From NCBI GenBank assembly GCA_963717365.1, contig OY970327.1:799752-863751 (forward strand): a DNA stretch of 64,000 bases. The letters run 5' to 3'. Position 1 is the stretch's first letter; every line of letters begins with the position of its first letter. Source of the DNA: Candidatus Saccharimonadia bacterium. Its GTDB lineage: Bacteria > Patescibacteriota > Saccharimonadia > Saccharimonadales > 2-12-FULL-41-12. The notes under the pieces are model-generated. The model saw nothing but the letters and a program-made list of their open reading frames with translations. It ran no database searches and was not told the DNA's origin. Below, piece after piece: positions 2,639-47,894 of this stretch. The position numbers were made by a program, and so were the translations under genes.

Positions 2639-3217
2639 ATGAAGAAGTTACTACAATCATCAGCAGTAGCAGTGGCTGGTATAGTATTAAGTGCTGGACT
2701 TGTCGCGGCTCAAGCCGACATCAGCAACACGGGGCCAGACTCCGAAAACACGATTGAAGCATCCGTTGAACACGATGTTGAGATCGATAACGACAACGAG
2801 GTAAGCGCCTTCGTTCTTAACCTTCAGGGTGCAGAATCAGGTGAAGCCGAAGTTGAAGGCAACACTACTGGCGGTAACGCAAAAAGCGGTGACGCATCAA
2901 ACAGCAACAGCACTTCAGTGTCTGCAAGCGTTGATAACTCAGGCTCATGCAGCTGTGGTTCAGGTCCAAGCTGGGCAGGATGGGGTAGCGGTTCAATCGA
3001 TAACACCGGTCCTGATTCAGAAAATACAATTGAATATAGCTACGAAAGCGATGTTGATATCGAGAACAACAACACCCTGACTTTCACTAGCGTGAACGTC
3101 CAAGGTGCTTCAAGCGGCGAAGCCGAAGTTGAAGGTAACACTACCGGTGGTAACGCTACCAGCGGTAATGCTTCAAACACTAGCAGCTCTAGCGTTGTTT
3201 TCTCAGTAAAGAACTAG
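2639..3217 (+). CDS. Secreted repeat-module surface protein (two NTGPDSEN...SGEAEVEGNTTGGNA-SG modules)
   Basis: 192 aa. Signal peptide MKKLLQSSAVAVAGIVLSAGLVAAQA. Two ~75-aa modules share I-NTGPDSENTIE...QGA-SGEAEVEGNTTGGNA-SG-ASN. AAAGGGG RBS lies 8-9 nt upstream of the ATG. Paralogous to 3359-5563 and 9206-9766. Confidence 0.75.
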   Translation: MKKLLQSSAVAVAGIVLSAGLVAAQADISNTGPDSENTIEASVEHDVEIDNDNEVSAFVLNLQGAESGEAEVEGNTTGGNAKSGDASNSNSTSVSASVDNSGSCSCGSGPSWAGWGSGSIDNTGPDSENTIEYSYESDVDIENNNTLTFTSVNVQGASSGEAEVEGNTTGGNATSGNASNTSSSSVVFSVKN

Positions 3218-3358
3218 TTTACTAGCTCATAGCTGTAGTTTTGTTACCTCAAAGACTTATGTCGTCTGACTGGTAGCAGGATGGGGAGCCAGGGGGAGCA
3301 GCATAAGGTTGCTTCCCCACTCCTGATAATTCGTACTCCGAACCTATAAAATACCTAT

Positions 3359-5563
3359 ATGGTAGAAAGCGAAAAATATATGACACTAAAGATAGCTGCC
3401 CGCAATACACTCTGTTTCGCACTCGTTTTAGTGCAGATTTCTGCCTTTCCTGCCGTTACAATGGTTCAGGCCCAGGAAGCCGTTCCAGAATCAAGCCAAC
3501 CGGCACCTGATTCTGCACCAGCTTCTGGCACAACTGAACAGCAAGCGCCGCCAGCGCCTGTAGAACAACAACCTCCGGCACCGACGGTGACGGAAGAACC
3601 CGTTGTTTCCCCTTCGGCCCCTGCGGTCCAGACCCAAGGTACCCCTGAAACGACCGGTCCAAGCCAGCCAACCGGTGCCGCCCGTAGTACCTATACCCGA
3701 AATGCCGATGGTACATGGTCAAACGATAAGTACACATGGGACCCCGTTACCAAGCAAACTCGTCCGAATACTCCGCAGGACTACAGCTATAACCCCAAAA
3801 CTGGTATGTGGGACACCACTGAGTATGTCTACAGCCCGGAGCAAGGTAAGTACATCCCAAATGTCCGCTCAACGCCAACTAACCCACTGCTGGCTTCAAG
3901 ATTAGCTGGGCCAGGCTCGGCCAATCCGTTAATTGCCGGACTACCAGGTAGCTATGATATTAACAACACCGGCCCCAACTCGACTAACTCAATTAATATG
4001 GGCTCAAATACAGTTGGGGCATTTGATCTCTTTTTCAATGGTTCTATCAGTAATACTATGTACTCAACTGCTCAATCAGGCGACGCGTTAGTTCAAGGCA
4101 ACACCCTGGGAGGAAACGCCTTAAGCGGCGATGCTCTGGCCATGGCAAATCTGCTTAATATGCTCCAGTCTTCGTGGATTAGTAGTTCCCAGATCGCTAC
4201 TTTTATCAGTACGATTGACGGAAACGTATACGGAGATTTGTTAATTGATCCGAATCAACTTCCCTACCAGATTGGCTCAAATAACTTGGATGTAGACGTT
4301 AACATTAGCAACAACGGCGCAATAGATAATAATGTTAACCTGGTTGCCCAATCCGGAGACGCTACTGTTAATGGTAATACTACCGGCGGCAATGCCACGA
4401 GCGGTGACGCCTATGCAATCGCCAACATCATTAACCTGATTAACGCCTCTATTAATTCCGGCCGGTCATTCCTGGGGATGATTAATATCACCGGTAACTT
4501 CAACGGTGATATCTTACTGCCGCCCGGCGTACTGGAAGCACTCATCGCCAACACGGGCGCTAATTCAACTAACACCATTGGCGGTACTACCAATTCAGAT
4601 GTTGACATTAATACGGAAACTAACCGTACTATCAATAATAATATACTCGCCACCGCGGGAAGCGGCGATGCCCTTGTTGGCAGCAATACCAGTGCCGGAA
4701 GCGCGGCTACGGGGAGCGCTGCCACCAGCACCAATACCCTTAATATGGTCGGTCAGAATATGAGCGGTAAAAACGGGTTATTAGTATTCGTTAATGTGCT
4801 TGGTCACTGGTACGGCATGGTTGTTGGTCCGGCTCCAACTACTGCGCAGATTACAAATACAGGGACTAATTCAACCAATACAATTGGACCGGGCAACAGC
4901 AACCAATCCCTCACCGTTAATGCCACAGAAAATAGCCTGATTAATAACGATATCTCTGTCCGCACCCAAAGCGGAGACGCAACCGTCAGTAATAACACGA
5001 ATGCCGGCAATGCTACCAGCGGCGATACTGAATCGGCTGTTAACCTGCTCAATATTATCGGCGGCGACATGAACTTTAGCGACTTCTTCGGTGTCCTATT
5101 CATTAACGTATTCGGCAGCTGGTCCGGTAACTTTGGCAGCGATACGGCTAACGGCGGCTTCAGCCAGTCTCCCGGACAGGCTCAGGGCGGTAGGGGTGCC
5201 GGATCTGCCGCTCCTACCAGTAACGCCGCGGCAGGCTCTTCTGCCGGCAATGGCGGCGTAGGACAAGTCTTTGGATTCATCTCCCGAGCGGCAAACAACC
5301 AGACCCAGGCCGGCGCTACAGCCGAACAAGGTGCTACTTCTACCGGCAAAACAATTGAAAGTAGTACCGTCTTTGGCAATACTACCGCGCCACCCAACTC
5401 CGGCGCTACTTCCGGCGCCAGTACAGTTAACGCAAGTATTTCCCAGATGAATTGGTGGCTGATCGCCGGTGTCATTGGCTTGATCGTAACGATAGCTTTC
5501 CTAACCCGTGAGTACTTCCTCACCCTTCGCGAAGAACGTCTGGCAGAATCTGTTACAGACTAA
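3359..5563 (+). CDS. Large surface protein: signal peptide, Pro-rich linker, four NTG-N-S-N/SGDA-V-GNT-GGNA-SGDA modules, C-terminal TM anchor
   Basis: 734 aa (start may be the ATG at 3380, MTLKIAARN...). PAP/PEQ-rich region at aa 45-100. Four modules with cores AQSGDALVQGNTLGGNALSGDA, AQSGDATVNGNTTGGNATSGDA, AGSGDALVGSNTSAGSAATGSA and TQSGDATVSNNTNAGNATSGDT. C-terminal TM helix WWLIAGVIGLIVTIAFL. Confidence 0.75.
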   Translation: MVESEKYMTLKIAARNTLCFALVLVQISAFPAVTMVQAQEAVPESSQPAPDSAPASGTTEQQAPPAPVEQQPPAPTVTEEPVVSPSAPAVQTQGTPETTGPSQPTGAARSTYTRNADGTWSNDKYTWDPVTKQTRPNTPQDYSYNPKTGMWDTTEYVYSPEQGKYIPNVRSTPTNPLLASRLAGPGSANPLIAGLPGSYDINNTGPNSTNSINMGSNTVGAFDLFFNGSISNTMYSTAQSGDALVQGNTLGGNALSGDALAMANLLNMLQSSWISSSQIATFISTIDGNVYGDLLIDPNQLPYQIGSNNLDVDVNISNNGAIDNNVNLVAQSGDATVNGNTTGGNATSGDAYAIANIINLINASINSGRSFLGMINITGNFNGDILLPPGVLEALIANTGANSTNTIGGTTNSDVDINTETNRTINNNILATAGSGDALVGSNTSAGSAATGSAATSTNTLNMVGQNMSGKNGLLVFVNVLGHWYGMVVGPAPTTAQITNTGTNSTNTIGPGNSNQSLTVNATENSLINNDISVRTQSGDATVSNNTNAGNATSGDTESAVNLLNIIGGDMNFSDFFGVLFINVFGSWSGNFGSDTANGGFSQSPGQAQGGRGAGSAAPTSNAAAGSSAGNGGVGQVFGFISRAANNQTQAGATAEQGATSTGKTIESSTVFGNTTAPPNSGATSGASTVNASISQMNWWLIAGVIGLIVTIAFLTREYFLTLREERLAESVTD

Positions 5564-5787: not shown

Positions 5788-6294
5788 TTACTTTTTGCGG
5801 GGCTGGGTATATTTTTGGTGAACAGTTTGGTAATCGAAGATTTCTGCTTCGCTGAACCAGTGAGAGATTTCCAAGGCGGCTTCTTCCGGATCACCGGAAG
5901 CGTGGACGATATTGGCGATACCTAAATCTTCATTATCAGCATGCGAAAAGCTAACGTGCGCATAATCGCCCCGGATAGTGCCGGGTGCCGCGTTTTTTGG
6001 CTCGGTGGTACCAACCATCTTGCGCACCAGACTGACTGCCTCAACGCCTTCCAGCACAAACGCGATAACAGGACCTTCTTGCATCATGGCAAGCGTAACG
6101 TCAAAGGCTTTTTGGCCGCGCCTAGAAACCATTTTACCGATTGTTTCGTAGTGATGGTAAAAGTGGTCATAGCTCGGCTGCAGCATTTTGGTGGCGACGA
6201 TCTTTAGGCCGGTCCGCTCAAAACGGCTCAAAATTTCACCAACCAGGCCGCGCTGCACCGTATCAGGTTTCAAGATAATCAGCGTTCGTTCCAT
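5788..6294 (-). CDS. ndk: Nucleoside-diphosphate kinase
   Basis: 168 aa. MERTLIILKPDTVQRGLVGEILSRFERTGLKIVATKM matches the NDK N-terminus. Active-site region NIVHASGD (NxxH[GA]SD). Confidence 0.9.
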   Translation of the reverse strand: MERTLIILKPDTVQRGLVGEILSRFERTGLKIVATKMLQPSYDHFYHHYETIGKMVSRRGQKAFDVTLAMMQEGPVIAFVLEGVEAVSLVRKMVGTTEPKNAAPGTIRGDYAHVSFSHADNEDLGIANIVHASGDPEEAALEISHWFSEAEIFDYQTVHQKYTQPRKK

Positions 6295-6380
6295 ATTTTG
6301 TAATTTTCCTTAATTAGTTTAGTCTCTATTCTAACAGATAGAAAGAATGTACGGTACCGGGTTATAACAGTCTGGTGTAG

Positions 6381-6427
6381 CACTATACCTCGACTTCATT
6401 AAAATTTCATTAAGCGCAGGTATAGAA
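6381..6427. repeat. Conserved palindromic intergenic element, copy A
   Basis: CACTATACCTCGACTTCATTAAAATTTCATTAAGCGCAGGTATAGAAG. Shares ACTATACCT / TTCATTAAA / GGTATAG blocks with copies at 41850-41896 and 47180-47227. Outer arms TATACCT/AGGTATA. Lies 87 nt upstream of the ndk start (minus) and ~55 nt upstream of the xer start (plus). Confidence 0.8.
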
Positions 6428-6481
6428 GTAGGAAGTGCCTGCGTGCACAAAACAGTCAGGAATGTCGTACAATGTAACCAT

Positions 6482-7399
6482 ATGCGTGTTCAAGCCCTTA
6501 TTACCGACTTTCTGGAATATCTGGAAATCGAACAAAACCGCTCCCAAAGGACCATCTCAAATTACGACCATTACCTGACACGGCTGGTTGATTATGCCGG
6601 TGACATTGATATTAGTGATGTCACGCCTGAACTGATACGTAAATGGCGCCTGTGGCTAAACCGACTGGGCACCAATACCAGTGATGAATTGGGTAAAAAT
6701 ACGCAGAATTATCACCTGATTGCGCTACGCAGCTTTCTCAAGTTCTGTTCTAAACGCGGCATAACGGCAATTAGCGCCGATAAGATTGAATTGGCTCGCA
6801 CAAAACGCACACAGGTAACATTTTTATCTGACGAAGAAATTAAGCGACTGCTGAACCAGCCGGACTTACATGATGCTGCCGGTCTGCGCGACCGGGCAAT
6901 TCTGGAGTTGCTTTTTTCTAGCGGTCTGCGTGTTTCGGAATTAGTCGGCTTAAATAAGGATCATATAAACCTAAAGCGTCTGGAATTTATGGTACGTGGT
7001 AAGGGTCAGAAAGATCGACCGATTTTTATTAGTCCTGTGGCGGCAAGCTGGGTCACCCGCTATCTAGAAGCTCGTACCGATACTAGCCCTGCCCTGTTTG
7101 TCCGGCTAGGTGGTCATAAAAAAGCTGATACCAGCGGCAATTTTCTACGCCTGACTGTACGCAGCGTCCAACGTATTGTGGCGCATTACGCACTCCTGGC
7201 AGGAATTACTAAGAAAGTCAGTCCCCACTCGCTTCGACATAGTTTTGCGACCGACTTACTGATGAACGGAGCTGATCTGCGCAGTGTTCAGGTTATGCTC
7301 GGGCATAGCAATATTTCAACCACCCAGATTTATACTCACGTTACCGATCCTCATCTTAAAAAAGTTCACGAACAGTTTCATCGCAAAAACGATGACTGA
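6482..7399 (+). CDS. Tyrosine site-specific recombinase, XerC/XerD family
   Basis: C-terminal catalytic region HSLRHSFATDLLMNGADLRSVQVMLGHSNISTTQIYTHV (R..HxxR..Y). SAM-like N-terminal domain (FLEYLEIEQNRSQRTISNY). The track ORF opens at GTG 6443. ATG 6482 is preferred because it gives the usual N-terminus and TACAAT lies 8 nt upstream. Confidence 0.85.
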   Translation: MRVQALITDFLEYLEIEQNRSQRTISNYDHYLTRLVDYAGDIDISDVTPELIRKWRLWLNRLGTNTSDELGKNTQNYHLIALRSFLKFCSKRGITAISADKIELARTKRTQVTFLSDEEIKRLLNQPDLHDAAGLRDRAILELLFSSGLRVSELVGLNKDHINLKRLEFMVRGKGQKDRPIFISPVAASWVTRYLEARTDTSPALFVRLGGHKKADTSGNFLRLTVRSVQRIVAHYALLAGITKKVSPHSLRHSFATDLLMNGADLRSVQVMLGHSNISTTQIYTHVTDPHLKKVHEQFHRKNDD

Positions 7400-11716: not shown

Positions 11717-12352
11717 TCATGGACAGCCAGGGAACCAAGGTAATAAAACACATACGATAGGAGGGAGGACAACGGGAGGGACAACGGGAGGTACTACAGG
11801 AGGGACAACGGGAGGTACAACGGGAGGTACTACAGGAGGGACAACGGGAGGTACTACAGGAGGGACAACGGGAGGTACTACTGGGCCGGGAGCTAGAGAA
11901 CCGACATTTTTATTACATGCTAGATAGAACGTTGTTAGCTCTTCAGGAGTTTGCTTAATAAGAGAATCCCAGGTAACCCGAACTGTGAGCGGTAAAGTTT
12001 CCTCACAAAGCAAGCTGCCAGCAGGATTAGGGTTTAAGACTGACACTGCATATAAGCCATCGGCGAGTGGGCAAGCTGCTACCGCGTCTACCCTACTAAG
12101 CGGGATGTTTTCTTGCAGACAAAATGTTCCCGCTGGCAAAATAGCATCAGTGGTATAACCGCGTAGCAGCTCCAGTTGTGCTTCCATTACCTTAGTGGCA
12201 CGTGACCGCTCCTGAGAAGCTTGAGCAGCCGCCTGGTTGCGATTTGTCAACGTAAACGCGGAGAGTAACATAAAACCTAGAGCTGCCAGGCAAATCAGAA
12301 CTTCAACAATTGTTTCACCGCGTTCAGATTGTTGGCGTATCATGCTGGGCAT
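11717..12352 (-). CDS. Prepilin-type minor pilin (PilV-like) with C-terminal (PPVV)n repeat
   Basis: 211 aa. QQSERG|ETIVEVLICLAALGFMLL (Glu+5). C-terminus GPVV(PPVV)9LPPIVCVLLPWFPGCP. Overlaps the upstream gene by 13 nt. Confidence 0.5.
   Translation of the reverse strand: MPSMIRQQSERGETIVEVLICLAALGFMLLSAFTLTNRNQAAAQASQERSRATKVMEAQLELLRGYTTDAILPAGTFCLQENIPLSRVDAVAACPLADGLYAVSVLNPNPAGSLLCEETLPLTVRVTWDSLIKQTPEELTTFYLACNKNVGSLAPGPVVPPVVPPVVPPVVPPVVPPVVPPVVPPVVPPVVPPVVLPPIVCVLLPWFPGCP
11768..11884 (-). repeat. 12-nt tandem repeat (~10 units) encoding PVV(PPVV)9
   Basis: Plus-strand units GGGAGG(G/T)AC(A/T)AC repeat head-to-tail from 11768 to 11884. Units differ only at synonymous third positions. 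Confidence 0.9.
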
Positions 12353-29664: not shown

Positions 29665-29715
29665 ACATAAAAGTATACGGTATGACCACTATCAATACTA
29701 CGGACTCCGAAACAG

Positions 29716-30411
29716 CTACTTATCGCCGTTTAGCCAGTCGGTGGCTTCTCTCAAGTCGGTGCGGGCCAACTCAAAACCATCGTCAATGGATTGTCGCCAA
29801 TCTTCTATATACGGAACTATCTCGGCGGCAGTTTTTTGATCCGTGAAGGCTGCGGTATCCACGCCAGTTTGGACTACTTCCCATAGATTTTCTTTGACGC
29901 CAGCGACGGTCTGATGAGCCCGTTCTGTTAACCACTCCGGAGTAACTTCGCCGATGGCAGCCAGCTGCTTAAGAGCCGCGCCCTGGCGCTCTGCATCACT
30001 CAGAACGGTTTGCAGTTTTTTGAGCCTGTCTGTCCTGCTGCACGCCGCATCGACATTTGGCCCTAGGTTTTGCAAATAACCATTGATTGTCTCGCCAAAT
30101 TCACCGATCAACTCCGCAAGTGTTGCCGGTTCAATTGGCTCAGCCGGTTCATCGAATTGCCCATCATCGCGCGCAACTGCTGGGCGCTGAGCATATACGG
30201 CTTCTAGATCTTGGCTAGCTCTATTGAAGGTATCCCCCAATTCTATTTTTATACCAGCTGCAACAACCCGCCCTATAACTGCATCTTTGTCTTCTTCTCT
30301 GCCGTGTAAGTTCGCTAAAGCTGCTGCAATTTGTGGCACATCACCACTCTCAGCCCACTGGGTTAATATTTCCGGACTTGGTACTTGGTTTGTGTTCATA
30401 GCTTCTTTCAT
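29716..30411 (-). CDS. Hypothetical acidic helical protein
   Basis: 231 aa. No TM helix or signal peptide, no recognised motif. Starts 8 nt after the stop of the 631-aa gene. Confidence 0.5.
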   Translation of the reverse strand: MKEAMNTNQVPSPEILTQWAESGDVPQIAAALANLHGREEDKDAVIGRVVAAGIKIELGDTFNRASQDLEAVYAQRPAVARDDGQFDEPAEPIEPATLAELIGEFGETINGYLQNLGPNVDAACSRTDRLKKLQTVLSDAERQGAALKQLAAIGEVTPEWLTERAHQTVAGVKENLWEVVQTGVDTAAFTDQKTAAEIVPYIEDWRQSIDDGFELARTDLREATDWLNGDK

Positions 30412-30419
30412 ATTATATT

Positions 30420-32315
30420 CTATTTTTTATTTCTTCTAATCTGACCGTCTTTTTCTATAACCACCGCCGGCTTAGAGTTACGGTAGGTCCGCACAATGTT
30501 GGTCAGCGGCGGCATCTTTACTTTTTCAGTAGGTGTACCGTCAGGCAAAGAGTCTAGTGTAGTTAATATACTTCTCATATTCGCGATGTTAGTCTGAAAA
30601 TCATAATCAACCGATGAGTGTGTGCCGGTAGTATGGGTGCCATAGACTGATCCCTCGGCAGTGTGCGCACGAAAGTATGATTCAACCGGCAGCCTAGCCG
30701 TTTCGTTATTCCCCCAATTGCCATTTCCAACTCCTAGCCCCTTTTCAAGGCGGTTTTCCGACGCGGCAATCAAGTTTACCCTGACACAGACAGCATACTT
30801 GCTGTAGGCTCTGCTGCTACTAATACTTCTATAACTACTCGACATCTGGGCGCCACTGATCGTCCAGTCATCCAATAAAATAATACGGACGTTTTCTGGC
30901 TCTTTAGTAATATCGCTAACTTCCTGGACGATCCTTCCCGAGTATTGTTCTAGTTCTCCGTCACTAAAAGTGGCTAGAATATTTTCAAACAAATAGGTGT
31001 CGCTTTTTCTTAATCCCTCAGACCTTGTTATAGCAAGCGGTACGCATATTTGGTTGTCTGGGTCACTCTCTAAGTAGTCTTTCCATAATTTTCCAAGCCC
31101 CTGTACGGCTTCGTCGTATTCTTTTTTACCAATGAAGGTTAGGTTTTCCAGCATACTCTTGGCTTGTATCATATATGTCTCGTAGTCATCGTTGGCTGCC
31201 ATTTTTGGATTGGTAGTGCAGTCCATCAAAAAATCATGCAGCTCTACCAAGCCTTGGTGTTCGGTTAGCTCTCTAATATCGGGATTTCCTAGATCATCAA
31301 ACGACATAGGGTTTGCACCGTAAGATGCAAGGTGCCGGAATGTATTAGTTCGGCTTTTGTCACGTATTTGCTCTTCAAATATTGGAGCGTCTTTGACAAA
31401 ATGTTGTTTGCCGTCAATCTCGGGATTAGCTATTTCTACTGTTTCAATGTGTGTCTCTGGGACATCATGAGTCTGCTTGCTTGCAATAAAGTCATCAAGC
31501 ATCTTTTCCATTTCGGGCGATTGGGATTCCGTTGGGGGAACAGTCTTCCATATGTTGAGTGCTTCTGGACTTGGCTTCCAGTTAAGTGGCGCAAATGGCT
31601 CCTGATAGACGGCCGGGGTACCTTTGACGGTCTTCATGACTTCATCAAGCAATACCTTGCCAGCATCTTTGGCGGCCGCGACTAGTTTTTTGTATTTGCC
31701 CTGTTCGGCGGCCGACGTATGAGATATTCCAAGATCAGCTTCAGGCGAATGCCAAAAACCCTCTTCTACTATCTGCATTGTGTCTGGATTGTCTGGATTG
31801 TCCACGCCATCAAGCCAATAATCATACGTACTTAGGGTGTTTTCTGATGACATGGGGAGGTTAGTCTTACGTTTGGCAGAGTTGAGCATAATAGAAGGAA
31901 TGTTCTCTAAATTTTTTCCAAGTATTAACGGTGAGTCGTACTGCTTGAAGTTATTTGCTGGGTAAAGCTTACTCTTCTTCAAAAAATTACCGTTCTTGTC
32001 ATGATAGTGGAGATCATTAGTTTCAGGTTTGCTAGAAGAGATGAAATGCTCGGGCATTTCGTCTTCATCAAAATTGAAGTTCTGGAGACTACCGTAAGAA
32101 GGCAATTCAGCCCCAGGAGACGGTGACATCTGGGACATATGTTGATTCATCATGCTAGAAGCATTCGGATTAAGTGTGGCGATGTGAACCTTTTTCCCCA
32201 TCATTGCTTCGGACGGCATTGGGACAAACTTAGGCACAATACTGCCAGAGGCCGTAACGACATGCTGGTCATGGATTGGTTCGAGCTTGTTACCGGGAAA
32301 GGATTCTGGGAGCAT
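30420..32315 (-). CDS. Large hypothetical cytoplasmic protein with C-terminal PRTase-like (PRPP-loop) motif
   Basis: 631 aa. No signal peptide. C-terminal third contains VRIILLDDWTISGAQM, which matches the type-I phosphoribosyltransferase PRPP-binding pattern (hydrophobic x4-DD-x2-[TS]G). The rest is unrecognised. Visibly AT-richer than its neighbours. Confidence 0.5.
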   Translation of the reverse strand: MLPESFPGNKLEPIHDQHVVTASGSIVPKFVPMPSEAMMGKKVHIATLNPNASSMMNQHMSQMSPSPGAELPSYGSLQNFNFDEDEMPEHFISSSKPETNDLHYHDKNGNFLKKSKLYPANNFKQYDSPLILGKNLENIPSIMLNSAKRKTNLPMSSENTLSTYDYWLDGVDNPDNPDTMQIVEEGFWHSPEADLGISHTSAAEQGKYKKLVAAAKDAGKVLLDEVMKTVKGTPAVYQEPFAPLNWKPSPEALNIWKTVPPTESQSPEMEKMLDDFIASKQTHDVPETHIETVEIANPEIDGKQHFVKDAPIFEEQIRDKSRTNTFRHLASYGANPMSFDDLGNPDIRELTEHQGLVELHDFLMDCTTNPKMAANDDYETYMIQAKSMLENLTFIGKKEYDEAVQGLGKLWKDYLESDPDNQICVPLAITRSEGLRKSDTYLFENILATFSDGELEQYSGRIVQEVSDITKEPENVRIILLDDWTISGAQMSSSYRSISSSRAYSKYAVCVRVNLIAASENRLEKGLGVGNGNWGNNETARLPVESYFRAHTAEGSVYGTHTTGTHSSVDYDFQTNIANMRSILTTLDSLPDGTPTEKVKMPPLTNIVRTYRNSKPAVVIEKDGQIRRNKK

Positions 32316-32493
32316 TGTTTTATTTTTAGTTTTTTATTTAATATCTTTAGAAGCTTATTGTAGCAAAAAAAATGACTTTTGTCAAGTTTAATATGGTGAG
32401 GTACTAACTGGTTCTATAATTTGATATATTAAAATATTTGCGCAAAGTAGTACCTTTAGGTATACTTTAAGTGTAACCTTAAGGAAAAATAGT

Positions 32494-32705: not shown

Positions 32706-33092
32706 ATGAGTTCCATTAGCCCTGATGAAATCGTATTCATTCACGATCAGATTATTAAAAAAACGGGTGGCGGTTTGGGAGTGCGTGAACCCGGCCTATT
32801 GCTTGCCATCGCCGCCAAGCCACACGCTAATTTTGGAGGCGAAGACTTATATCCCACTGTCTTTCTAAAGGCAGCCGCCCTGTATGAAGCGCTTTGTAAC
32901 TATCATATATTTATTGATGGCAATAAACGCTGCGGCATCGCCGTATGCGAGTATTTTCTACATAAAAACAATTACCTGCTTCAAGCTAGTAGGCAGCAAA
33001 AGGAAGAATTTACCCTTTTCATAGCGACCACCAATCCCAATCTTGAAGAAGTTGCAGCCTGGCTCCAAAAGCAAAGCAAGGAGGATAAATGA
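32706..33092 (+). CDS. doc: Doc (death-on-curing) Fic-fold toxin kinase
   Basis: 128 aa. Fic/Doc motif HIFIDGNKRCG (HxFx[DN][GA]NKR). N-terminal IHDQIIKKTGG. Confidence 0.85.
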   Translation: MSSISPDEIVFIHDQIIKKTGGGLGVREPGLLLAIAAKPHANFGGEDLYPTVFLKAAALYEALCNYHIFIDGNKRCGIAVCEYFLHKNNYLLQASRQQKEEFTLFIATTNPNLEEVAAWLQKQSKEDK

Positions 33093-40990: not shown

Positions 40991-41728
40991 CTATGCAGGA
41001 GCAAACTGCTGTTCAACATTTTGGCTAAAATGCATAAGAGAGTGGCAATGCACTAATCGCTTGGTAACCATGCGCAAATTTTCAGCGCCTGAATGCAAGT
41101 AACCTTCTTTTTTATATTCTTTATATGTTTGATTAAGGCCTTCTAGCGACAAATCTAGTGCCGTAGCAAGCATAAACCCAGCATGCTGCCTTTTTACTTC
41201 GTAGGTTGTGTCTTTGTCTAAGAACTCATCAATAACTCTGTTGTCGATTAAATCTTTAATCCCTTGCTTGGCAGCATATTCGGCAAAAAATTTAGCTAGT
41301 GGCTTTGGATCCTCAACTCTGATTATTTTTGACCTTGCCAAAAAAGAGTGGTGATAGTCGCCAAGCGATACTTCGCGGTAGCTCCAGGGTTTTCTGACAT
41401 CAACTGCCCTTCTGGGAACAACGCCAGCTGCGCACATGACCGCTATCTCGAAGTCTTCATCCTCGATTTCTGGCATTACCGAACCACCGAATAACCTGTG
41501 GTAGTTAGTATGGAGGTTAAAATCAACAAGCTGGACGCGGCTGGCCCTAACTGCCAGACCACCTACAGTATTCAGAAGCGGACTTTTTTCAGGATGAAAG
41601 GAATGGTGAAGATTTTTCTTATTTCTAATAGAAAAAGGAGCCCCGTTTGATGGGGGCTCCTTATGGAAAATCGGCAGCGGCAGTCCGGTCACATCGCACA
41701 TTGGTGCTTTCTCAAATGGGACTGACAC
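40991..41728 (-). CDS. Hypothetical cytoplasmic protein (His-rich motifs)
   Basis: 245 aa. No TM helix or signal peptide. NLHHSFHP and LHTNYHRLF motifs. No family recognised with confidence. Confidence 0.5.
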   Translation of the reverse strand: MSVPFEKAPMCDVTGLPLPIFHKEPPSNGAPFSIRNKKNLHHSFHPEKSPLLNTVGGLAVRASRVQLVDFNLHTNYHRLFGGSVMPEIEDEDFEIAVMCAAGVVPRRAVDVRKPWSYREVSLGDYHHSFLARSKIIRVEDPKPLAKFFAEYAAKQGIKDLIDNRVIDEFLDKDTTYEVKRQHAGFMLATALDLSLEGLNQTYKEYKKEGYLHSGAENLRMVTKRLVHCHSLMHFSQNVEQQFAPA

Positions 41729-41849
41729 TTTATATCCTCCACTATTTTGGTTTTATATTGTTACTATATTGTTAACAGTATAAAAGCTCAAGTTTATTGA
41801 GATGTAGTTATAACATCACTTTACTGAGTTTCTAAATTGAAGCCTTGAG

Positions 41850-41896
41850 CACTATACCTTCGTTTCATTAAAACTTAATGATGTTGAGATATAGTA
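41850..41896. repeat. Conserved palindromic intergenic element, copy B
   Basis: CACTATACCTTCGTTTCATTAAAACTTAATGATGTTGAGATATAGTA. Central perfect hairpin TCATTAA-AAC-TTAATGA. Outer arms ACTATA/TATAGT. Lies 122 nt upstream of the 41728 start and 45 nt downstream of the ftsK stop. Confidence 0.8.
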
Positions 41897-41940
41897 CGAA
41901 GTACAGAGCTGTAGTAGCAATCCTCTAAGAGTTGTAGTGT

Positions 41941-44187
41941 CTACCGTACTGGTTCGTCGTCGTCTGGCATATCGTCGTAGACATCGCCACCAATGCCGCT
42001 GTCAGCCGAAGAATCGACCGGGCTGCCAAAGACATCATCCATACTGCTAATCAGGACTTCTCGCGGGCGGGCGCCATCGGCGGGGCCCACGATGCCTTGC
42101 TCTTCCATGTTTTCGATTAGGCGGGCGGCACGGGCGTAACCGACGCGAAGGCGGCGCTGCAATAGGCTGGTACTGGCCTTGCGGCCCTCAATCACTACGC
42201 GGATGGCATCGCGCCACAGATCATCATCGGCTTCCCCGCCATGTCCCATATCAGTGACAATGCCGCCTTTGCCATTAAGTTGCACGGGCTGGCTAACAAC
42301 TTCGTCGTCGTACTGCGGTGGGCGCTGCTCTTTAATAAAGTCGACGATCTTAGCAGTTTCGACGTCAGATATAAACGCCGCTTGGATACGCTTTGGCTTA
42401 GGCATGTCACTAGTCAGCAGCAACATGTCACCGCGGCCGAGCAGTTTTTCGGCACCTACCTGATCAATGATCGTCCGCGAGTCAACCTGGCTCTGCGTAG
42501 TAAAGGCAATTCTGCCCGGCACATTGGCTTTTATTAGTCCGGTTATAACGTCTACAGAGGGACGCTGGGTGGCGAGCACCAGATGAATACCGGCAGCACG
42601 GGCTTTCTGGGCGAGACGCACAATCAGCGCTTCAACGTCGCGGGCAGCCACCATCATCAGGTCAGCCAGCTCATCAATCACAATTACGATGTACGGCATA
42701 CCTTCTTCTTTTTTGAGTTCATTGTATTCGCCAATGTTGCGTTTGCTGACTTCGGCCATGGTGCGCAGGCGGCGCTCCATCTCGGCAACTGCCCATTTAA
42801 GGGCACTGATACATTTTTCAGGTTCGTTAATAACCGGTGTTAAAAGATGCGGTATATCGGCGTACGGTGCCAGCTCAACCTGTTTTGGGTCAACCAGAAT
42901 CAGCTTTAAATCTGACGGTGAGTTGCGGTACAGTAAGCTGGTTAAAATATCATTAATCATGACTGATTTACCGGAACCTGTCTGCCCGGCCACTAGTAGG
43001 TGAGGCATTTTAGCCAGGTCGCCGACGATCGGCAGGCCGGCAATGTCGCGGCCAATCGCAAAGCCAAGCGGGCCGGTAACGCTTTGCCATTCGCGAGATG
43101 ACAGTACGCCGCTCATCCGCACCATAGCTGGCTTCACGTTTGGCACTTCGATACCAACCAGGCGTTTGCCAGGAATTGGCGCCTCTATACGGATAGAATG
43201 GGCCGCTAAATCAAGTGCCAAGTTATTATCGAGTGCCGTAATTTTCGTTAATTTTACCCCTGTTGGCGGCTTCAATGTGTACTGTGTTACCCGCGGGCCC
43301 ACATTAGCGCCTTCCATTTCAACCTGAATATTGAAGTTAGTAAATGTCTCCCGGATTGTCCGAGCATTACCCTCAACATCGCCGGCGTCAGCTTTATCCT
43401 GTTTCTGGTCGAGCAGCTTTAGGCTTGGGAATTCCCAATTAGGATCGCTGGCAATTGTTAATGCTTCGTGATTTTCATTAGAGGTCATTTTATGAGCGGT
43501 GTTCTTTAAGCTGGAAAGGCGGAGGGGCTGCTTTTCTTCAACTACCGGCTGTTGGGGAGAATGAACGGTTGGTACGCCCTCGTTCAACTTAAACTGACTT
43601 TCGGATCGTTGCTTGAGACTTTCTAGGTCACTGTCTTTCTTCTTTTCCGGCCGTTGAAATGGTAACGCTAACATTTTTAAGGAAAGATTAAACGACGCAA
43701 AGAATGCAAGTGTCGCGATAGCCGCGAATAAGATGCTAGCCGGAACTTGATCGAGTGCGGCCAGGCTGGCATCCCCAATAAAGGCGCCAACTACCCCGCC
43801 GTTACCAAGATTCGCGGCAGTTAAACCAACAAGTTCGCTTGAAATAAATGCCGTATGCATCAGCGCTGCGCTGGCCAGGACAAATATCAGAACGCTCAGC
43901 AGTTTGCCGAGTGGGATCCGGCGTTCTTCATCTTTAAATTTCAGGATACCGAAGTACAACAGTGCCGGAGGGGCCAAATAGGCGGCGTAGCCAAGTGTCT
44001 CATATAAGCCACTAAACATACTGATGGGTAGCGGCCCACCCGCGCCAAAGCCACCGAGACCAAGGAACAAAGCCAGCAGCATCAAAAAGATGGCGCCTGC
44101 AAGGGGCCAAAAGGCTGACGGCTCTTTTCTTATCGGAGGAGCAGCGACTTTTTTTGATCTAGCTTTTGATTTTTTCTTTTTGGCCAT
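41941..44187 (-). CDS. ftsK: DNA translocase FtsK/SpoIIIE
   Basis: 748 aa. N-terminal 4-5 TM helices, linker, motor domain with Walker A VAGQTGSGKS and Walker B VIVIDELADL, gamma-domain-like C-terminus (LLQRRLRVGYARAARLIENMEEQGIVGP). Confidence 0.9.
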   Translation of the reverse strand: MAKKKKSKARSKKVAAPPIRKEPSAFWPLAGAIFLMLLALFLGLGGFGAGGPLPISMFSGLYETLGYAAYLAPPALLYFGILKFKDEERRIPLGKLLSVLIFVLASAALMHTAFISSELVGLTAANLGNGGVVGAFIGDASLAALDQVPASILFAAIATLAFFASFNLSLKMLALPFQRPEKKKDSDLESLKQRSESQFKLNEGVPTVHSPQQPVVEEKQPLRLSSLKNTAHKMTSNENHEALTIASDPNWEFPSLKLLDQKQDKADAGDVEGNARTIRETFTNFNIQVEMEGANVGPRVTQYTLKPPTGVKLTKITALDNNLALDLAAHSIRIEAPIPGKRLVGIEVPNVKPAMVRMSGVLSSREWQSVTGPLGFAIGRDIAGLPIVGDLAKMPHLLVAGQTGSGKSVMINDILTSLLYRNSPSDLKLILVDPKQVELAPYADIPHLLTPVINEPEKCISALKWAVAEMERRLRTMAEVSKRNIGEYNELKKEEGMPYIVIVIDELADLMMVAARDVEALIVRLAQKARAAGIHLVLATQRPSVDVITGLIKANVPGRIAFTTQSQVDSRTIIDQVGAEKLLGRGDMLLLTSDMPKPKRIQAAFISDVETAKIVDFIKEQRPPQYDDEVVSQPVQLNGKGGIVTDMGHGGEADDDLWRDAIRVVIEGRKASTSLLQRRLRVGYARAARLIENMEEQGIVGPADGARPREVLISSMDDVFGSPVDSSADSGIGGDVYDDMPDDDEPVR

Positions 44188-44924: not shown

Positions 44925-47099
44925 TTAGTCGGTTCTGGCATCTTGATTTAGTAGCTTGGCGCGCATCGTTGCAAAGCGCTGCTGCATTTCGCTGGCTTCT
45001 TGTTCCGGAGTCTTCTGTGTTTCAGGAGTCTGAGCAGGTTGGCCGCCGTTATTGGTACCGTTAGTTTGGTTATTTTGACCGCTGTTCTGCTGACCACCAT
45101 GGCCGCTCTGCGAGCCACCACCCTGACGGCCGCCAACTACGTTAACCACCGGAATAACAATTGGGCTGCGGCCGGTTTTCTCATACAAGAAGTGCGTAAC
45201 GTGCTCTTTGAGCTCAATCTTAAAGCGGTCGAGGTCGATGCGCTTGAAGCGCTGCGAAACGGCGCGTTTCAATTCGATACGGAACGTATTCATCAACTCT
45301 TCCTGACCTTTCATGTAGATAAAACCGCGGCTGATGATATCTGGGCTGGTCATCAGCTGGCCAGTCTTTTTATCAATGGTGAGTACGACAGCAACCAATC
45401 CTTCGTTGCTTAACATCAGGCGGTCTTTCACTACAACGTTGCTGACAATAGCACCAGTTTGGTCTACCAGGATAGTACCGTGCGGGACGTTGCCGATAAT
45501 CTCCATTTTGTCTTTGGTCAATGCTACGATATCGCCGTTGTCGGCGTTGAGCGTGTTGCCGCGTGGGATTCCCTCTTCAACTGCAATTTCAATGTGCTGA
45601 CGCTTAGAAGTGTAGTCGCCGTAAATTGGCAGGAAGAACTTGGGCTTAGTCATATTGATCATGTCTTTGTATTCATCAATGCTGGCGTGGCCAGAGACGT
45701 GCAGCGGACCACAACCGTCAATTTCGCGGGTTTCGTGGCGGAAGACGTGCACGCCTTTGCGGTACAGGTCATCAACCATAGAACGGACCTTAGCGTCGTT
45801 ACCGGAGTATGGAATTGGCGTACTGGAAAGAATCACCGTATCCTGTTCTTTCAGTTTTACATGGCGGTGCTCGCCGGTGCTCATACGCTGCAAGGCGGAG
45901 CTTGGTTCGCCCTGTGATCCGGTACAGACAATGACTAGCTCTTCGTCTTTCATGGTGTTAACGCTGGCAATCGGGGCAAATGTTCCTTTTGGAATTTTTA
46001 CGAAACCGTTGCGCACAGCCATTTCCAAGGTACTGACCATGCTGCGGCCGTCCATTACCACCTTGCGATTAGTCTGCACGGCGGCGTTAATGATCATCTG
46101 GACGCGGTTCATATTGGTTGAGAACAAACCAATAAAGATGCGGCCGGGTGCGTTTGACATAATGTCGACAAAACTCTGCTCAATCGTTGTCTCGGAAGGA
46201 GTGCGACCCAGACGTTCGGTGGTAGTACTTTCACTGAGTAAAGCCAGCACACCCTGATTACCAAGCTCAATTAACCGCTCGGTATTAGTACGCTCATGGT
46301 CTAAAGGATTAGGGTCAAGTCGAAAGTCACCAGTGTTAATAATACGTCCAACCGGTGTGTCTACCACAATACAGGTACTGCCGGGAATGGAGTGAGTGAC
46401 GCGGATAAGTTCTAGGAAGAACTCGCCGACTTTTAGGCGTTCGCCGGTATCTTCGTTCATAATGACGGTGCGCAGTTCAAAGCCTTCGGGCATTGGCAGA
46501 CCAAAATTGCCAAAGATTTCTTCAACTCGGCCGATAGTGAAACGGCTACCGTAAACCGGTGCTGGGAAAAGCGGTAGAATGTGTGGTAAGCCACCGATGT
46601 GGTCAAGGTGGCCATGCGTGATAACGTAGGCCTTCAGCTTATGCTTAATGGATTCTAGGTAAGTCATGTCGGCAATGCCATAGTTGATGCCGGGCAGGTC
46701 CACACCGAGGTCGCTGCCGCAGTCCATAATAATAGCGTCGTTCTGATATTCGACAACGATGGTATTTTTTGAACCACCGCCATCCATGCCGCCTAGACCG
46801 ATAATCTTAAGACGTGGCGTGTCATCAATAACATTGGCGCGGCCGCGCGGCTCATTACTGTTATTGCCTTCTGCATTCAAGTATTGGCTAGCGATACGAT
46901 GGGCGTCTTCGCTGGCTCGTTTTTGAGCTCGGATAGCAGCGCCGCGGCTAGCCCGGCTGGGACCGCCGGATGACTGGCCTTTGCCAGAATCACGATTAGC
47001 GCCAAGTCGGCGTCCGCTCGTTTTCTGCTCTCTTGAACCTGAATTACCATCGGGGTTAGGAGTGTTGTTAGTTGGTTTAGGTTTAGGGTTGTGTACCAT
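44925..47099 (-). CDS. rnj: Ribonuclease J with long low-complexity N- and C-terminal extensions
   Basis: 724 aa. Metallo-beta-lactamase motif ITHGHLDHIGG and a beta-CASP core. About 95-aa basic Gly/Ser/Arg-rich N-terminal tail and about 90-aa Gly/Gln/Asn-rich C-terminal tail. Confidence 0.9.
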   Translation of the reverse strand: MVHNPKPKPTNNTPNPDGNSGSREQKTSGRRLGANRDSGKGQSSGGPSRASRGAAIRAQKRASEDAHRIASQYLNAEGNNSNEPRGRANVIDDTPRLKIIGLGGMDGGGSKNTIVVEYQNDAIIMDCGSDLGVDLPGINYGIADMTYLESIKHKLKAYVITHGHLDHIGGLPHILPLFPAPVYGSRFTIGRVEEIFGNFGLPMPEGFELRTVIMNEDTGERLKVGEFFLELIRVTHSIPGSTCIVVDTPVGRIINTGDFRLDPNPLDHERTNTERLIELGNQGVLALLSESTTTERLGRTPSETTIEQSFVDIMSNAPGRIFIGLFSTNMNRVQMIINAAVQTNRKVVMDGRSMVSTLEMAVRNGFVKIPKGTFAPIASVNTMKDEELVIVCTGSQGEPSSALQRMSTGEHRHVKLKEQDTVILSSTPIPYSGNDAKVRSMVDDLYRKGVHVFRHETREIDGCGPLHVSGHASIDEYKDMINMTKPKFFLPIYGDYTSKRQHIEIAVEEGIPRGNTLNADNGDIVALTKDKMEIIGNVPHGTILVDQTGAIVSNVVVKDRLMLSNEGLVAVVLTIDKKTGQLMTSPDIISRGFIYMKGQEELMNTFRIELKRAVSQRFKRIDLDRFKIELKEHVTHFLYEKTGRSPIVIPVVNVVGGRQGGGSQSGHGGQQNSGQNNQTNGTNNGGQPAQTPETQKTPEQEASEMQQRFATMRAKLLNQDARTD

Positions 47100-47179
47100 A
47101 AATCCTCCTTTATTATTAGTTTGGGTTAAAATTTATTGTTCTTAAATAAGGTTTATCTTTGAAGACAGTATCTTTGCGG

Positions 47180-47227
47180 TACTATACCTGTGTTTCATTA
47201 AATTTTAATGAGACGCAGGTATAATAC
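47180..47227. repeat. Conserved palindromic intergenic element, copy C
   Basis: TACTATACCTGTGTTTCATTAAATTTTAATGAGACGCAGGTATAATAC. Perfect outer stem TATACCTG/CAGGTATA and perfect inner stem TCATTAA-ATT-TTAATGA. Lies 81 nt upstream of the rnj start and 23 nt downstream of the UDG stop. Confidence 0.85.
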
Positions 47228-47249
47228 TTTTCATACATTTGCCAGCACG

Positions 47250-47894
47250 TTAGGCTGATTCATCAATTCCTTCTTTGGTCAGCAGTTTTTGCACTGCCGG
47301 GATAGTTGCGAAATCTTCCATCAGGGTTGTCTTTAGCTGGCCGTTATACAGCGCAGCGGCTGGATGATACAACGGCATTATTACCAGCTTAGTCTCACCA
47401 AACGTGACTCGCTTTGGCTGACCGTGGATTTCACTAATCTTGGCGTTTGGCAGGAAGTACTCCATGCTATGCCGGCCAAGTGTCACAATAATCCGTGGCT
47501 TTATGATTTGCAGTTCGCGAACCAAAAACGGCCAAAAAGCTCGCTTTTCTTCCGGTTTTGGGTCGCGATTGCCGGGAGGACGGTACTTAACTATATTTGT
47601 AATGTAAATGTCCTCACGCTTCAGGTTGGCAGCGGCCAGCATTTCATCAAGAAACTTTCCGGCGGCACCGACAAACGGTATGCCCTGAAGATCCTCATTT
47701 TTACCGGGCGCTTCGCCGATAAAAACCACGTCGGCCGCCGTATTGCCATGCCCGGTTACTAACTGGGTGGCAGACTCGGCCAACTCCGGGCAGATATTCT
47801 GTTTCAGGATATCTGCTTTAAGCTGGTCAAGTAATGTCTGACTATCTGAAGGCACCTGTGTTCCTGTGTTTAGAAAGCAAGAGGTAAAAACCAA
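47250..47894 (-). CDS. Uracil-DNA glycosylase, family 4
   Basis: 214 aa. VVFIGEAPGKNEDLQGIPFVGAAGKFLDEML (GEAPG...PFvG.aG) and the HPAAALY motif. The N-terminus is uncertain because it overlaps the upstream small ORF by 53 nt as drawn. Confidence 0.85.
   Translation of the reverse strand: MVFTSCFLNTGTQVPSDSQTLLDQLKADILKQNICPELAESATQLVTGHGNTAADVVFIGEAPGKNEDLQGIPFVGAAGKFLDEMLAAANLKREDIYITNIVKYRPPGNRDPKPEEKRAFWPFLVRELQIIKPRIIVTLGRHSMEYFLPNAKISEIHGQPKRVTFGETKLVIMPLYHPAAALYNGQLKTTLMEDFATIPAVQKLLTKEGIDESA

Follow-up and report, generated by a model that had tools for sequence, protein, structure and literature searches.

The three palindromic sequences found in the window, the 64-kb stretch of DNA analysed here, are members of a dispersed palindromic repeat family of a small Saccharimonadales clade, and copies of this element are gained and lost between related species. 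With moderate confidence, we interpret the family as a lineage-restricted, non-coding interspersed palindromic repeat of the REP/REPIN or MITE type. It would be a new repeat family of a known kind, made unusual by its hyper-conserved, four-block centre and its occurrence in a phylum thought to have few repeats. The genomes of Saccharibacteria and other Patescibacteria are ~1 Mb in size and generally regarded as streamlined and repeat-poor; this lineage contains tens of copies of a hyper-conserved palindrome. No description of repeats of this type in Saccharibacteria or Patescibacteria was found in the literature.

Window copies and extent of the family

All three window sites contain a 45-bp dyad with the architecture ACTATACCT-N4-TTCATTAAA-N-TTTAATGAA-N4-AGGTATAGT. 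Copy A (core 6382..6426, sequence ACTATACCT-CGAC-TTCATTAAA-A-TTTCATTAA-GCGC-AGGTATAGA) and copy B (core 41851..41895) each match 33 of the 36 block positions, and copy C (core 47181..47225) matches 34; none of the cores is assigned to a strand. The original prediction described a ~47-nt element in three copies (6381-6427, 41850-41896 and 47180-47227). The sequences occur there exactly as quoted, including the direct orientation of the right inner block of copy A (TTTCATTAA). The element is thus real, but it is a four-block 45-bp dyad, and the number three holds for the window only, which is part of a complete 1.19-Mb contig; the family itself is larger. When up to three mismatches are tolerated, the half-site ACTATACCT-N4-TTCATTAAA has six matches (both strands at each of the sites), compared to 0.04 expected from 100 shuffles. 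An independent repeat search of the window recovered the same three-copy family in direct and inverted orientation (repeats D7, I1 and I2), and with a weight matrix derived from them, the six half-sites reach 30-38 bits and the rest of the 64-kb window no more than 12 bits. The RNA content of the window according to Rfam and ARAGORN is limited to a tRNA-Arg.

Copy A is located in the divergent spacer between ndk (5788-6294, minus strand) and a tyrosine recombinase gene (ORF 6443-7399, plus strand, with its start codon at ATG 6463 or 6484). Copy B is bordered by the stop of ftsK (41941; gene 41941-44187, minus strand) on one side and by the gene of a 245-aa protein without Pfam match (40991-41728, minus strand, with rpsF next) on the other. 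Copy C is likewise bordered by the stop of udg (47250; gene 47250-47894, minus strand) and by rnj, encoding RNase J (44925-47099, minus strand). Annotation supports the earlier gene calls for ndk, the 245-aa hypothetical, rnj, ftsK and udg. The distance to the minus-strand start codons, given before as 81-122 nt, was measured as 87 nt (A), 122 nt (B) and 81 nt (C), and on the minus strand each copy indeed ends in AGGTATAGT(G/A)C. Directly beside copy B, a stretch of DNA (41896..41917, ACGAAGTACAGAGCTGTAGTAG) shows a weak, by-eye likeness to the 'alpha' arm (ac.aataaaggtatGTACTGAGCTG) that is common to many copies of the metagenome-assembled genome (MAG) TH_ant_mag_28, and may be an arm relic. 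For copy C, the full insert probably spans ~95 nt (47155..47249, approximate ends), i.e. the core with an arm of ~25 nt on each side.

To delineate the family, the exact 18-base half-site was searched in the genomes of 185,579 species, with one genome per species. The 39 loci obtained comprise 28 from Saccharibacteria and 11 from unrelated phyla; 24 of the 39 are found in TH_ant_mag_28 (Saccharimonadales, JBPCJO01, GCA_051005235.1) and four in CAZIMF01, another Saccharibacteria MAG. A complete dyad is present at every one of the 28 Saccharibacteria loci, and at none of the 11 loci of other phyla is the motif part of a palindrome. Approximately 17 chance matches are estimated for a pattern of this size, and the 11 non-palindromic loci serve as a built-in chance control. 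The pattern search of relatives that the original prediction had put forward as a check hence yields further copies, in TH_ant_mag_28 and CAZIMF01. The exact-pattern scan of these species genomes returned no family member outside the Saccharimonadales clade. The same pattern gave 36 matches in a metagenome collection, none of which is a family member, and had no match in phage, plasmid and viral collections. Seventeen of the 36 metagenome matches belong to an unrelated, non-palindromic repeat from a single sample series (Ga03075xx) that contains the same 18 bases. In this repeat (loci L041, L043, L044, L051, L052, L056, L061, L064, L065 and L067-L072), the half-site occurs by coincidence within a conserved stretch of ~130 nt. 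No Rfam family matches the element, either in the window at the gathering threshold or in two loci at a permissive E-value; tRNA-Arg, RNase P RNA and spurious hairpins are the only matches in these sequences.

A relaxed scan of the retrieved loci resulted in 36 copies overall, ten of which are perfect across the 36 block positions. The known copies amount to ~30-33 in the retrieved parts of TH_ant_mag_28, four in CAZIMF01 and three in the window, and all of them are intergenic; as the search pattern demands an exact match, this sample is biased toward intact copies. Based on crude ORF calls, the flanking genes have the same direction in 21 cases, are divergent in three and apparently convergent in three. 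The 40 neighbouring proteins that were annotated have unrelated, ordinary housekeeping functions. They include the products of purH, metG, topA, secA, hpf, grpE, a Mur ligase gene, ddl and corA, an EF-Tu-family GTPase, the products of rnc, uvrC, gltX, a tmk-thyX fusion, tsaD and atpA, and those of a pyrH-like kinase gene, thrS, der, pth and ftsA. None of these 40 proteins, encoded in about 200-250 kb of sequence from relatives, is a transposase, a RAYT or another candidate mobilising protein, and the retrieved loci contain no autonomous element with the termini of the family. The apparent tmk-thyX fusion is a 759-aa ORF with thymidylate kinase and ThyX domains (L025:601-2877), located downstream of a perfect copy.

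Structure of the element and turnover at orthologous sites

The four 9-nt blocks of the element are nearly invariant, and variation is found in the two N4 spacers and the central base, which is A or T. With the GT and AC that flank it in most copies, the element usually measures 49 bp. Read outward, the 72 spacers display recurrent flavours, such as ACGC (28), GTCG (9), ACCC (5), CTCG (3) and CCCG (3), and a tabulation over the copies shows no orientation bias of these flavours relative to transcription. Such shared states at unconstrained positions indicate that the copies descend from one another, as opposed to having originated independently as binding sites.

The similarity between copies extends beyond the core. 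Looser arms of ~25 nt or more surround copy C and many copies in the relatives. Unlinked copies have arms of 25-65 nt in common, as well as 76-100-nt units with 85-89% identity. In a long-arm subfamily (...GGTATAGT-ac.a.taaaggtatgtattgagctgg-ggagttttgcaaccagt), the copies constitute foldback units of ~160-175 nt with terminal inverted repeats. Full-length termini (ACTGGTTGCAAAACTCC...GGAGTTTTGCAACCAGT) are present at L001:5204, L005:792, L010:6638 and L019:113 and are missing from most copies, those of the window included. Identical termini enclose a different interior once (L038:5168-5248), and the inner palindrome is once found within different outer arms (L033:134-158). Conservation peaks at the centre of the element and declines outward. 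The flanks of the full-length copies contain no consistent target-site duplication; copy C is accompanied by a possible duplication of ~20 nt of the udg 3' end. The median spacer between tandem genes measures 233 nt with an element and 88 nt without, a difference of about 145 nt, in line with an insert considerably longer than 45 bp. Judging from the shared arms and the spacer lengths, the copied unit would comprise the core with its ~25-nt arms and reach ~160-175 nt at full length.

Syntenic proteins of TH_ant_mag_28 are mostly 70-91% identical to those of the window, and orthologous intergenic sites can be compared directly. At the udg-rnj junction (copy C), the TH_ant_mag_28 spacer is ~37 nt long and has no element, compared to ~150 nt in the window; the extra DNA corresponds to the core with its ~25-nt arms, and the sequence downstream of this insert resembles the ancestral 3' end of udg. 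The junction between ftsK and the 245-aa gene (copy B) also lacks the element in TH_ant_mag_28 (L076). There, the position held by copy B in the window is occupied by an additional 147-aa ORF without Pfam match (L076:2356-2799). In the recombinase-ndk spacer (copy A), the element is absent in all four relatives compared, including TH_ant_mag_28, and the ~20 kb covered in each of the four contains no element elsewhere either. The Ndk proteins of the three relatives other than TH_ant_mag_28 are 89-92% identical to that of the window. The spacer resembles an insertion hotspot for palindromes. Its palindromic insert differs by relative, with GAAAGTATGAA/TTCATACTTTC repeats in one (L080:9790-9900) and ATGCTAGTTATGTTTAATAG...TTATTAAATGTAGCTAGCAT in another (L081:9865-9925), and in a third (L082) the whole spacer has only 85 nt.

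Two TH_ant_mag_28 copies, L006:1573 and L024:579, in turn have no counterpart in the window. Presence/absence polymorphism is thereby observed at udg-rnj, ftsK-245-aa gene, xer-ndk and purA/ABC-F, and a profile search (nhmmer) at the empty orthologous sites detected no decayed copies. A role of the copies as markers of synteny breakpoints was rejected, given that L024:579 is situated within an insertion of ~450 nt and the genes to either side of this insertion are conserved. The presence/absence polymorphism, the shared flavours and arms and the longer spacers together argue for spread by copying. Of the three explanations offered in the original prediction, remnants of a miniature palindromic mobile element is accordingly the best supported one, owing to this polymorphism and the shared N4 flavours and arms, although the blocks turn out to be constrained (see below). 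In practical terms, the insertion polymorphisms could serve as strain markers, and dispersed repeats of this type could contribute to the fragmentation of MAG assemblies.

Transcription, RNA structure and constraint on the core

The first of the other two explanations was a shared promoter/operator module, in which the outward TATAGT would act as -10 box and the inner palindrome as operator of a dimeric regulator for ndk, the 245-aa gene, rnj and others. TATAGT matches the -10 consensus at 5/6 positions. Promoter-like arrangements with 9/12 matches (TTAAAA-N16-TATAGT or ATGAAA-N17-TATAGT) are directed toward the downstream gene at copies A and C, but away from it at copy B. Moreover, the better half of each window copy always faces the downstream gene, and the recombinase gene next to copy A has little space for another promoter if it starts at ATG 6463. 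However, promoter matches of 9/12 are no commoner here than in shuffles, and in relatives, the orthologues of ndk, the 245-aa gene and rnj have no element in front of them. In the relatives, ndk and the 245-aa gene keep promoter-like motifs of their own. For ndk, this is an extended -10-like motif (TGTTAGAAT, 6328..6336, minus strand) between copy A and the gene, outside the element, which is identical in the window and the three element-free relatives other than TH_ant_mag_28, where TGTTAAAAT is found instead. For the 245-aa gene and the rpsF operon, it is TTGAGC-N17-TATAGT (41763..41791, minus strand), again outside the element, between copy B and the gene, and kept in the element-free TH_ant_mag_28 (two genomes). 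The conserved TTGACA-N17-TATAAT promoter of rpsP lies downstream of an element at a variable distance, one cross-species conserved copy is located between the convergent rplT and rnpB, and the neighbouring genes have no functional theme in common. The shared N4 flavours and arms, finally, reflect common descent and not sites that arose independently. We therefore consider a shared promoter/operator very improbable, and family copies should not be read as promoters or operators in annotation. Incidental promoter or hairpin effects on neighbours, for instance on the recombinase gene by copy A, are possible.

The remaining explanation was a REP-like structured RNA that acts as insulator or terminator. 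More broadly, the element could be a transcribed hairpin in 3' or 5' UTRs with a function as terminator, 3'-end stabiliser or RNase III target; REP sequences act at the RNA level in enterobacterial mRNAs. In tandem contexts, the distance from the element to the upstream stop codon (often 16-60 nt) is usually shorter than that to the following start codon, perfect copies fold at approximately -40 kcal/mol with a stem of ~22 bp, and the rplT copy would be transcribed as it lies between the stop codon and the intrinsic terminator. The pattern of substitution argues against such a role. The original prediction had suggested looking for compensatory changes in the stems, and none of the 49 block pairs that deviate from the consensus is compensated. 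The two N4 spacers of one copy are mutually complementary in only 7 of the 36 copies, so no base-pairing constraint is visible. In addition, the window copies fold weakly (-12.7, -17 and -23.4 kcal/mol, the last for copy C), no U-tract is present at the element, and the window has a single, weak terminator-like match, on the strand opposite to the genes. Copies between divergent genes (copy A, L006:1573 and L024:579) are situated upstream of both promoters, ordinary terminators are equally rare in spacers with (3/24) and without an element (12/106), and no Rfam family is matched. Hence, the REP-like part of this proposal holds for the genomic behaviour of the family but not for a constraint on RNA, and an RNA-level function of the element appears unlikely.

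Conservation in place was found for part of the family. Absence of the element at orthologous positions in relatives, which the original prediction named among its grounds for refutation, was observed for the three window copies but not for the family, since TH_ant_mag_28 has orthologous counterparts of two of the four CAZIMF01 copies. In the first pair, the element is located between the rnc stop and the conserved, canonical rpsP promoter, and its distance to the -35 hexamer is 31 or 66 nt, depending on the genome. In the second pair, the element follows the rplT stop and precedes an intrinsic terminator, beyond which rnpB (RNase P RNA, 250 bits) is found on the opposite strand, a convergent context in which there is nothing to promote. 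The flanking intergenic DNA of both pairs is gap-rich and 25-55% identical. A comparison of the orthologous copies shows differences at 4 of 72 block positions and at 7 of 18 spacer positions within the element (Fisher p = 0.0009). The search pattern imposes exactness on one half of each copy; the halves not selected by it are 91% identical to the consensus (21 sites). This slower change of the blocks points to sequence-specific recognition by a protein, and the core is probably a protein-binding site. With four blocks under constraint, the core is more than a decaying remnant.

In the mechanism that we propose on these grounds, the core would consist of two 22-nt half-sites, and within each of them a free 4-nt spacer lies between the outer block ACTATACCT and the inner block TTCATTAAA. 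Because the four blocks are constrained, the spacers free and no pairing constraint is seen, the core may be recognised at the sequence level by a dimeric, sequence-specific DNA-binding protein. The likeliest binder would be an enzyme responsible for copying the element in trans, or a domesticated protein derived from one. Copies would land, or only survive, in the short stretch that separates a gene end from the following promoter, and any effects on transcription through the outward-facing TATAGT and the hairpin would be secondary.

The block constraint in resident orthologues is not expected of a purely selfish, decaying repeat and fits a function at the level of the host equally well. The centre-out gradient of conservation and the lack of a clear target duplication and of a transposase in the examined DNA make a host-function site the main rival of the mobile repeat. 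According to this alternative, the core is a chromosomal site for an architectural, insulator or chromosome-organisation protein, maintained by purifying selection and originally spread by duplication. Noc, SlmA and MatP are served by tens of dispersed chromosomal sites, and tens of copies per ~1-Mb genome are present here as well. The blocks change ~7-fold slower than the spacers within the same orthologous element while the flanks are scrambled, the element is symmetric, its N4 flavours are unbiased in orientation to transcription, and copies occur in every intergenic context, the convergent one included. On the other hand, neither the three window copies nor the two TH_ant_mag_28 copies that could be tested are shared between these two genomes despite the similarity of their syntenic proteins, a turnover that is high if the sites were essential to chromosome architecture. 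The family is also absent from the other close relatives (~60 kb examined) and, as an exact pattern, from the remaining species genomes. Moreover, 36 constrained positions carry far more information than ~40 sites require, and the shared arms and N4 flavours speak for spread by copying. On balance, we deem such a host-function site rather unlikely.

For the interspersed, REP- or MITE-type repeat that we prefer, a more specific and clearly tentative proposal is that the core is the cognate site of a putative, vertically inherited DNA-binding enzyme (a domesticated transposase or recombinase, analogous to REPIN-RAYT) or of a new chromosome-architecture protein. The family would then form part of a persistent, selected repeat-protein system in an ultra-small episymbiont genome and not decaying junk. 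The block-specific constraint predicts a specific DNA-binding protein, and some Saccharibacteria are now culturable and transformable. If the partner were a domesticated transposase, systems of the REPIN-RAYT type would extend to the candidate phyla radiation.

Known repeat systems and further observations

The closest parallels are the REP/REPIN-RAYT systems of Enterobacteria and Pseudomonas, which similarly consist of short, extragenic, lineage-specific palindromes with tens to hundreds of copies and sequence 'flavours'. In both cases, single loci come and go while the family persists, copies are located behind genes or in convergent spacers, and recognition involves sequence as well as dyad. 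In those systems, the cognate gene for the RAYT, a Y1 HUH transposase, is typically flanked by repeats, whereas no RAYT gene is present among the 40 neighbours here. The 5' foot of the REP palindrome is usually described as GT[AG]G; the foot of the Saccharibacteria dyad is GT|ACTATACC, with the tetranucleotide GTAC in most copies, and differs from that of REPs. Unlike in REPINs, where two hairpin-forming REPs are separated by a spacer, the half-sites abut with one base in between. BIME-like clusters as known for REPs do not occur here either, and the host phylum is a different one, Saccharibacteria (Patescibacteria).

MITEs such as the Correia elements of Neisseria, RUP and BOX of Streptococcus and ERIC are likewise non-coding intergenic repeats of ~100-175 nt, and the family resembles them in its presence/absence polymorphism, the outward -10-like sequences and, in full-length copies, the terminal inverted repeats. 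The termini are the best-conserved part of classical MITEs, whereas it is the centre in this family. Furthermore, there is no consistent target-site duplication, no cognate insertion sequence was seen, and most copies are reduced to the 45-bp core with short arms. Operators of dimeric regulators (7-1-7 boxes of the Fur family, CIRCE/HrcA) are comparable to TTCATTAAA-N-TTTAATGAA in size and symmetry. The element differs from them by an extra pair of conserved outer blocks and by its convergent copies, and it lacks a fixed promoter geometry, a regulon theme and orthologous upstream conservation.

Several individual candidates were rejected. The CACTATA...TATAGTG ends resemble the two halves of an NrdR box, but they are ~30 bp apart, without a local 16-bp palindrome and with ~40 sites by unrelated genes, which does not suit such a box. 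On inspection, the order or spacing of half-sites does not fit the consensuses of Fur-type 7-1-7 boxes, the ARG box, MerR-type long-spacer promoters or ECF sigma sites (TGAAAC). Copy A adjoins a recombinase gene and copy B adjoins ftsK; a parS or dif/Xer site was discarded in view of the absence of a parS match, the many dispersed copies and the absence of the recombinase-adjacent copy in four relatives. A DNA uptake sequence is unlikely, as ~1 copy per 20-30 kb is far too sparse and the copies are strictly intergenic.

With a genome of ~1 Mb, TH_ant_mag_28 is unusually repeat-rich. Besides the element, it carries several intergenic families of palindromic or dispersed repeats, 75-170 nt in length and without sequence relationship to the 45-bp core, at L006:4243-4410, L017:1830-1993, L005:6046-6134, L010:3544-3616 and L038:5168-5248, and at L002:7721-7824, L004:5870-5975, L033:4237-4328, L022:1953-2037 and L006 (703-793 and 3514-3606). 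At L026:1570-1590, a near-consensus parS-like site (TGTTTCACGTGAAAG) adjoins an isolated copy of the inner palindrome (TTTCATTAAATGTTAATGAAA).

The window itself has further features of interest. Two ORFs (2639-3217 and 3359-5563) with internal repeats of ~276 nt (D2, D3, D5 and D6, within 2639-5563) suggest a pair of repetitive proteins, probably at the surface. Tandem 12-nt units in ~10 or more overlapping registers (ACAACGGGAGGT / ACTACAGGAGGG) are present at 11745-11908 inside a minus-strand ORF (11717-12352) and should encode a short repetitive peptide segment. A two-gene segment (29677-32451) that is absent from the syntenic TH_ant_mag_28 contig encodes a 231-aa protein without Pfam match and a 631-aa protein whose PRTase-CE match is weak and below threshold. 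A Fic/DOC gene (32706-33092) adjoins this segment, and the region may be a small variable or defence-type island. Finally, the RNase J of the window comprises 724 aa, with Pfam domains from approximately residue 107 onward; the preceding N-terminal extension of ~100 residues is also present in the TH_ant_mag_28 orthologue and is fast-diverging.
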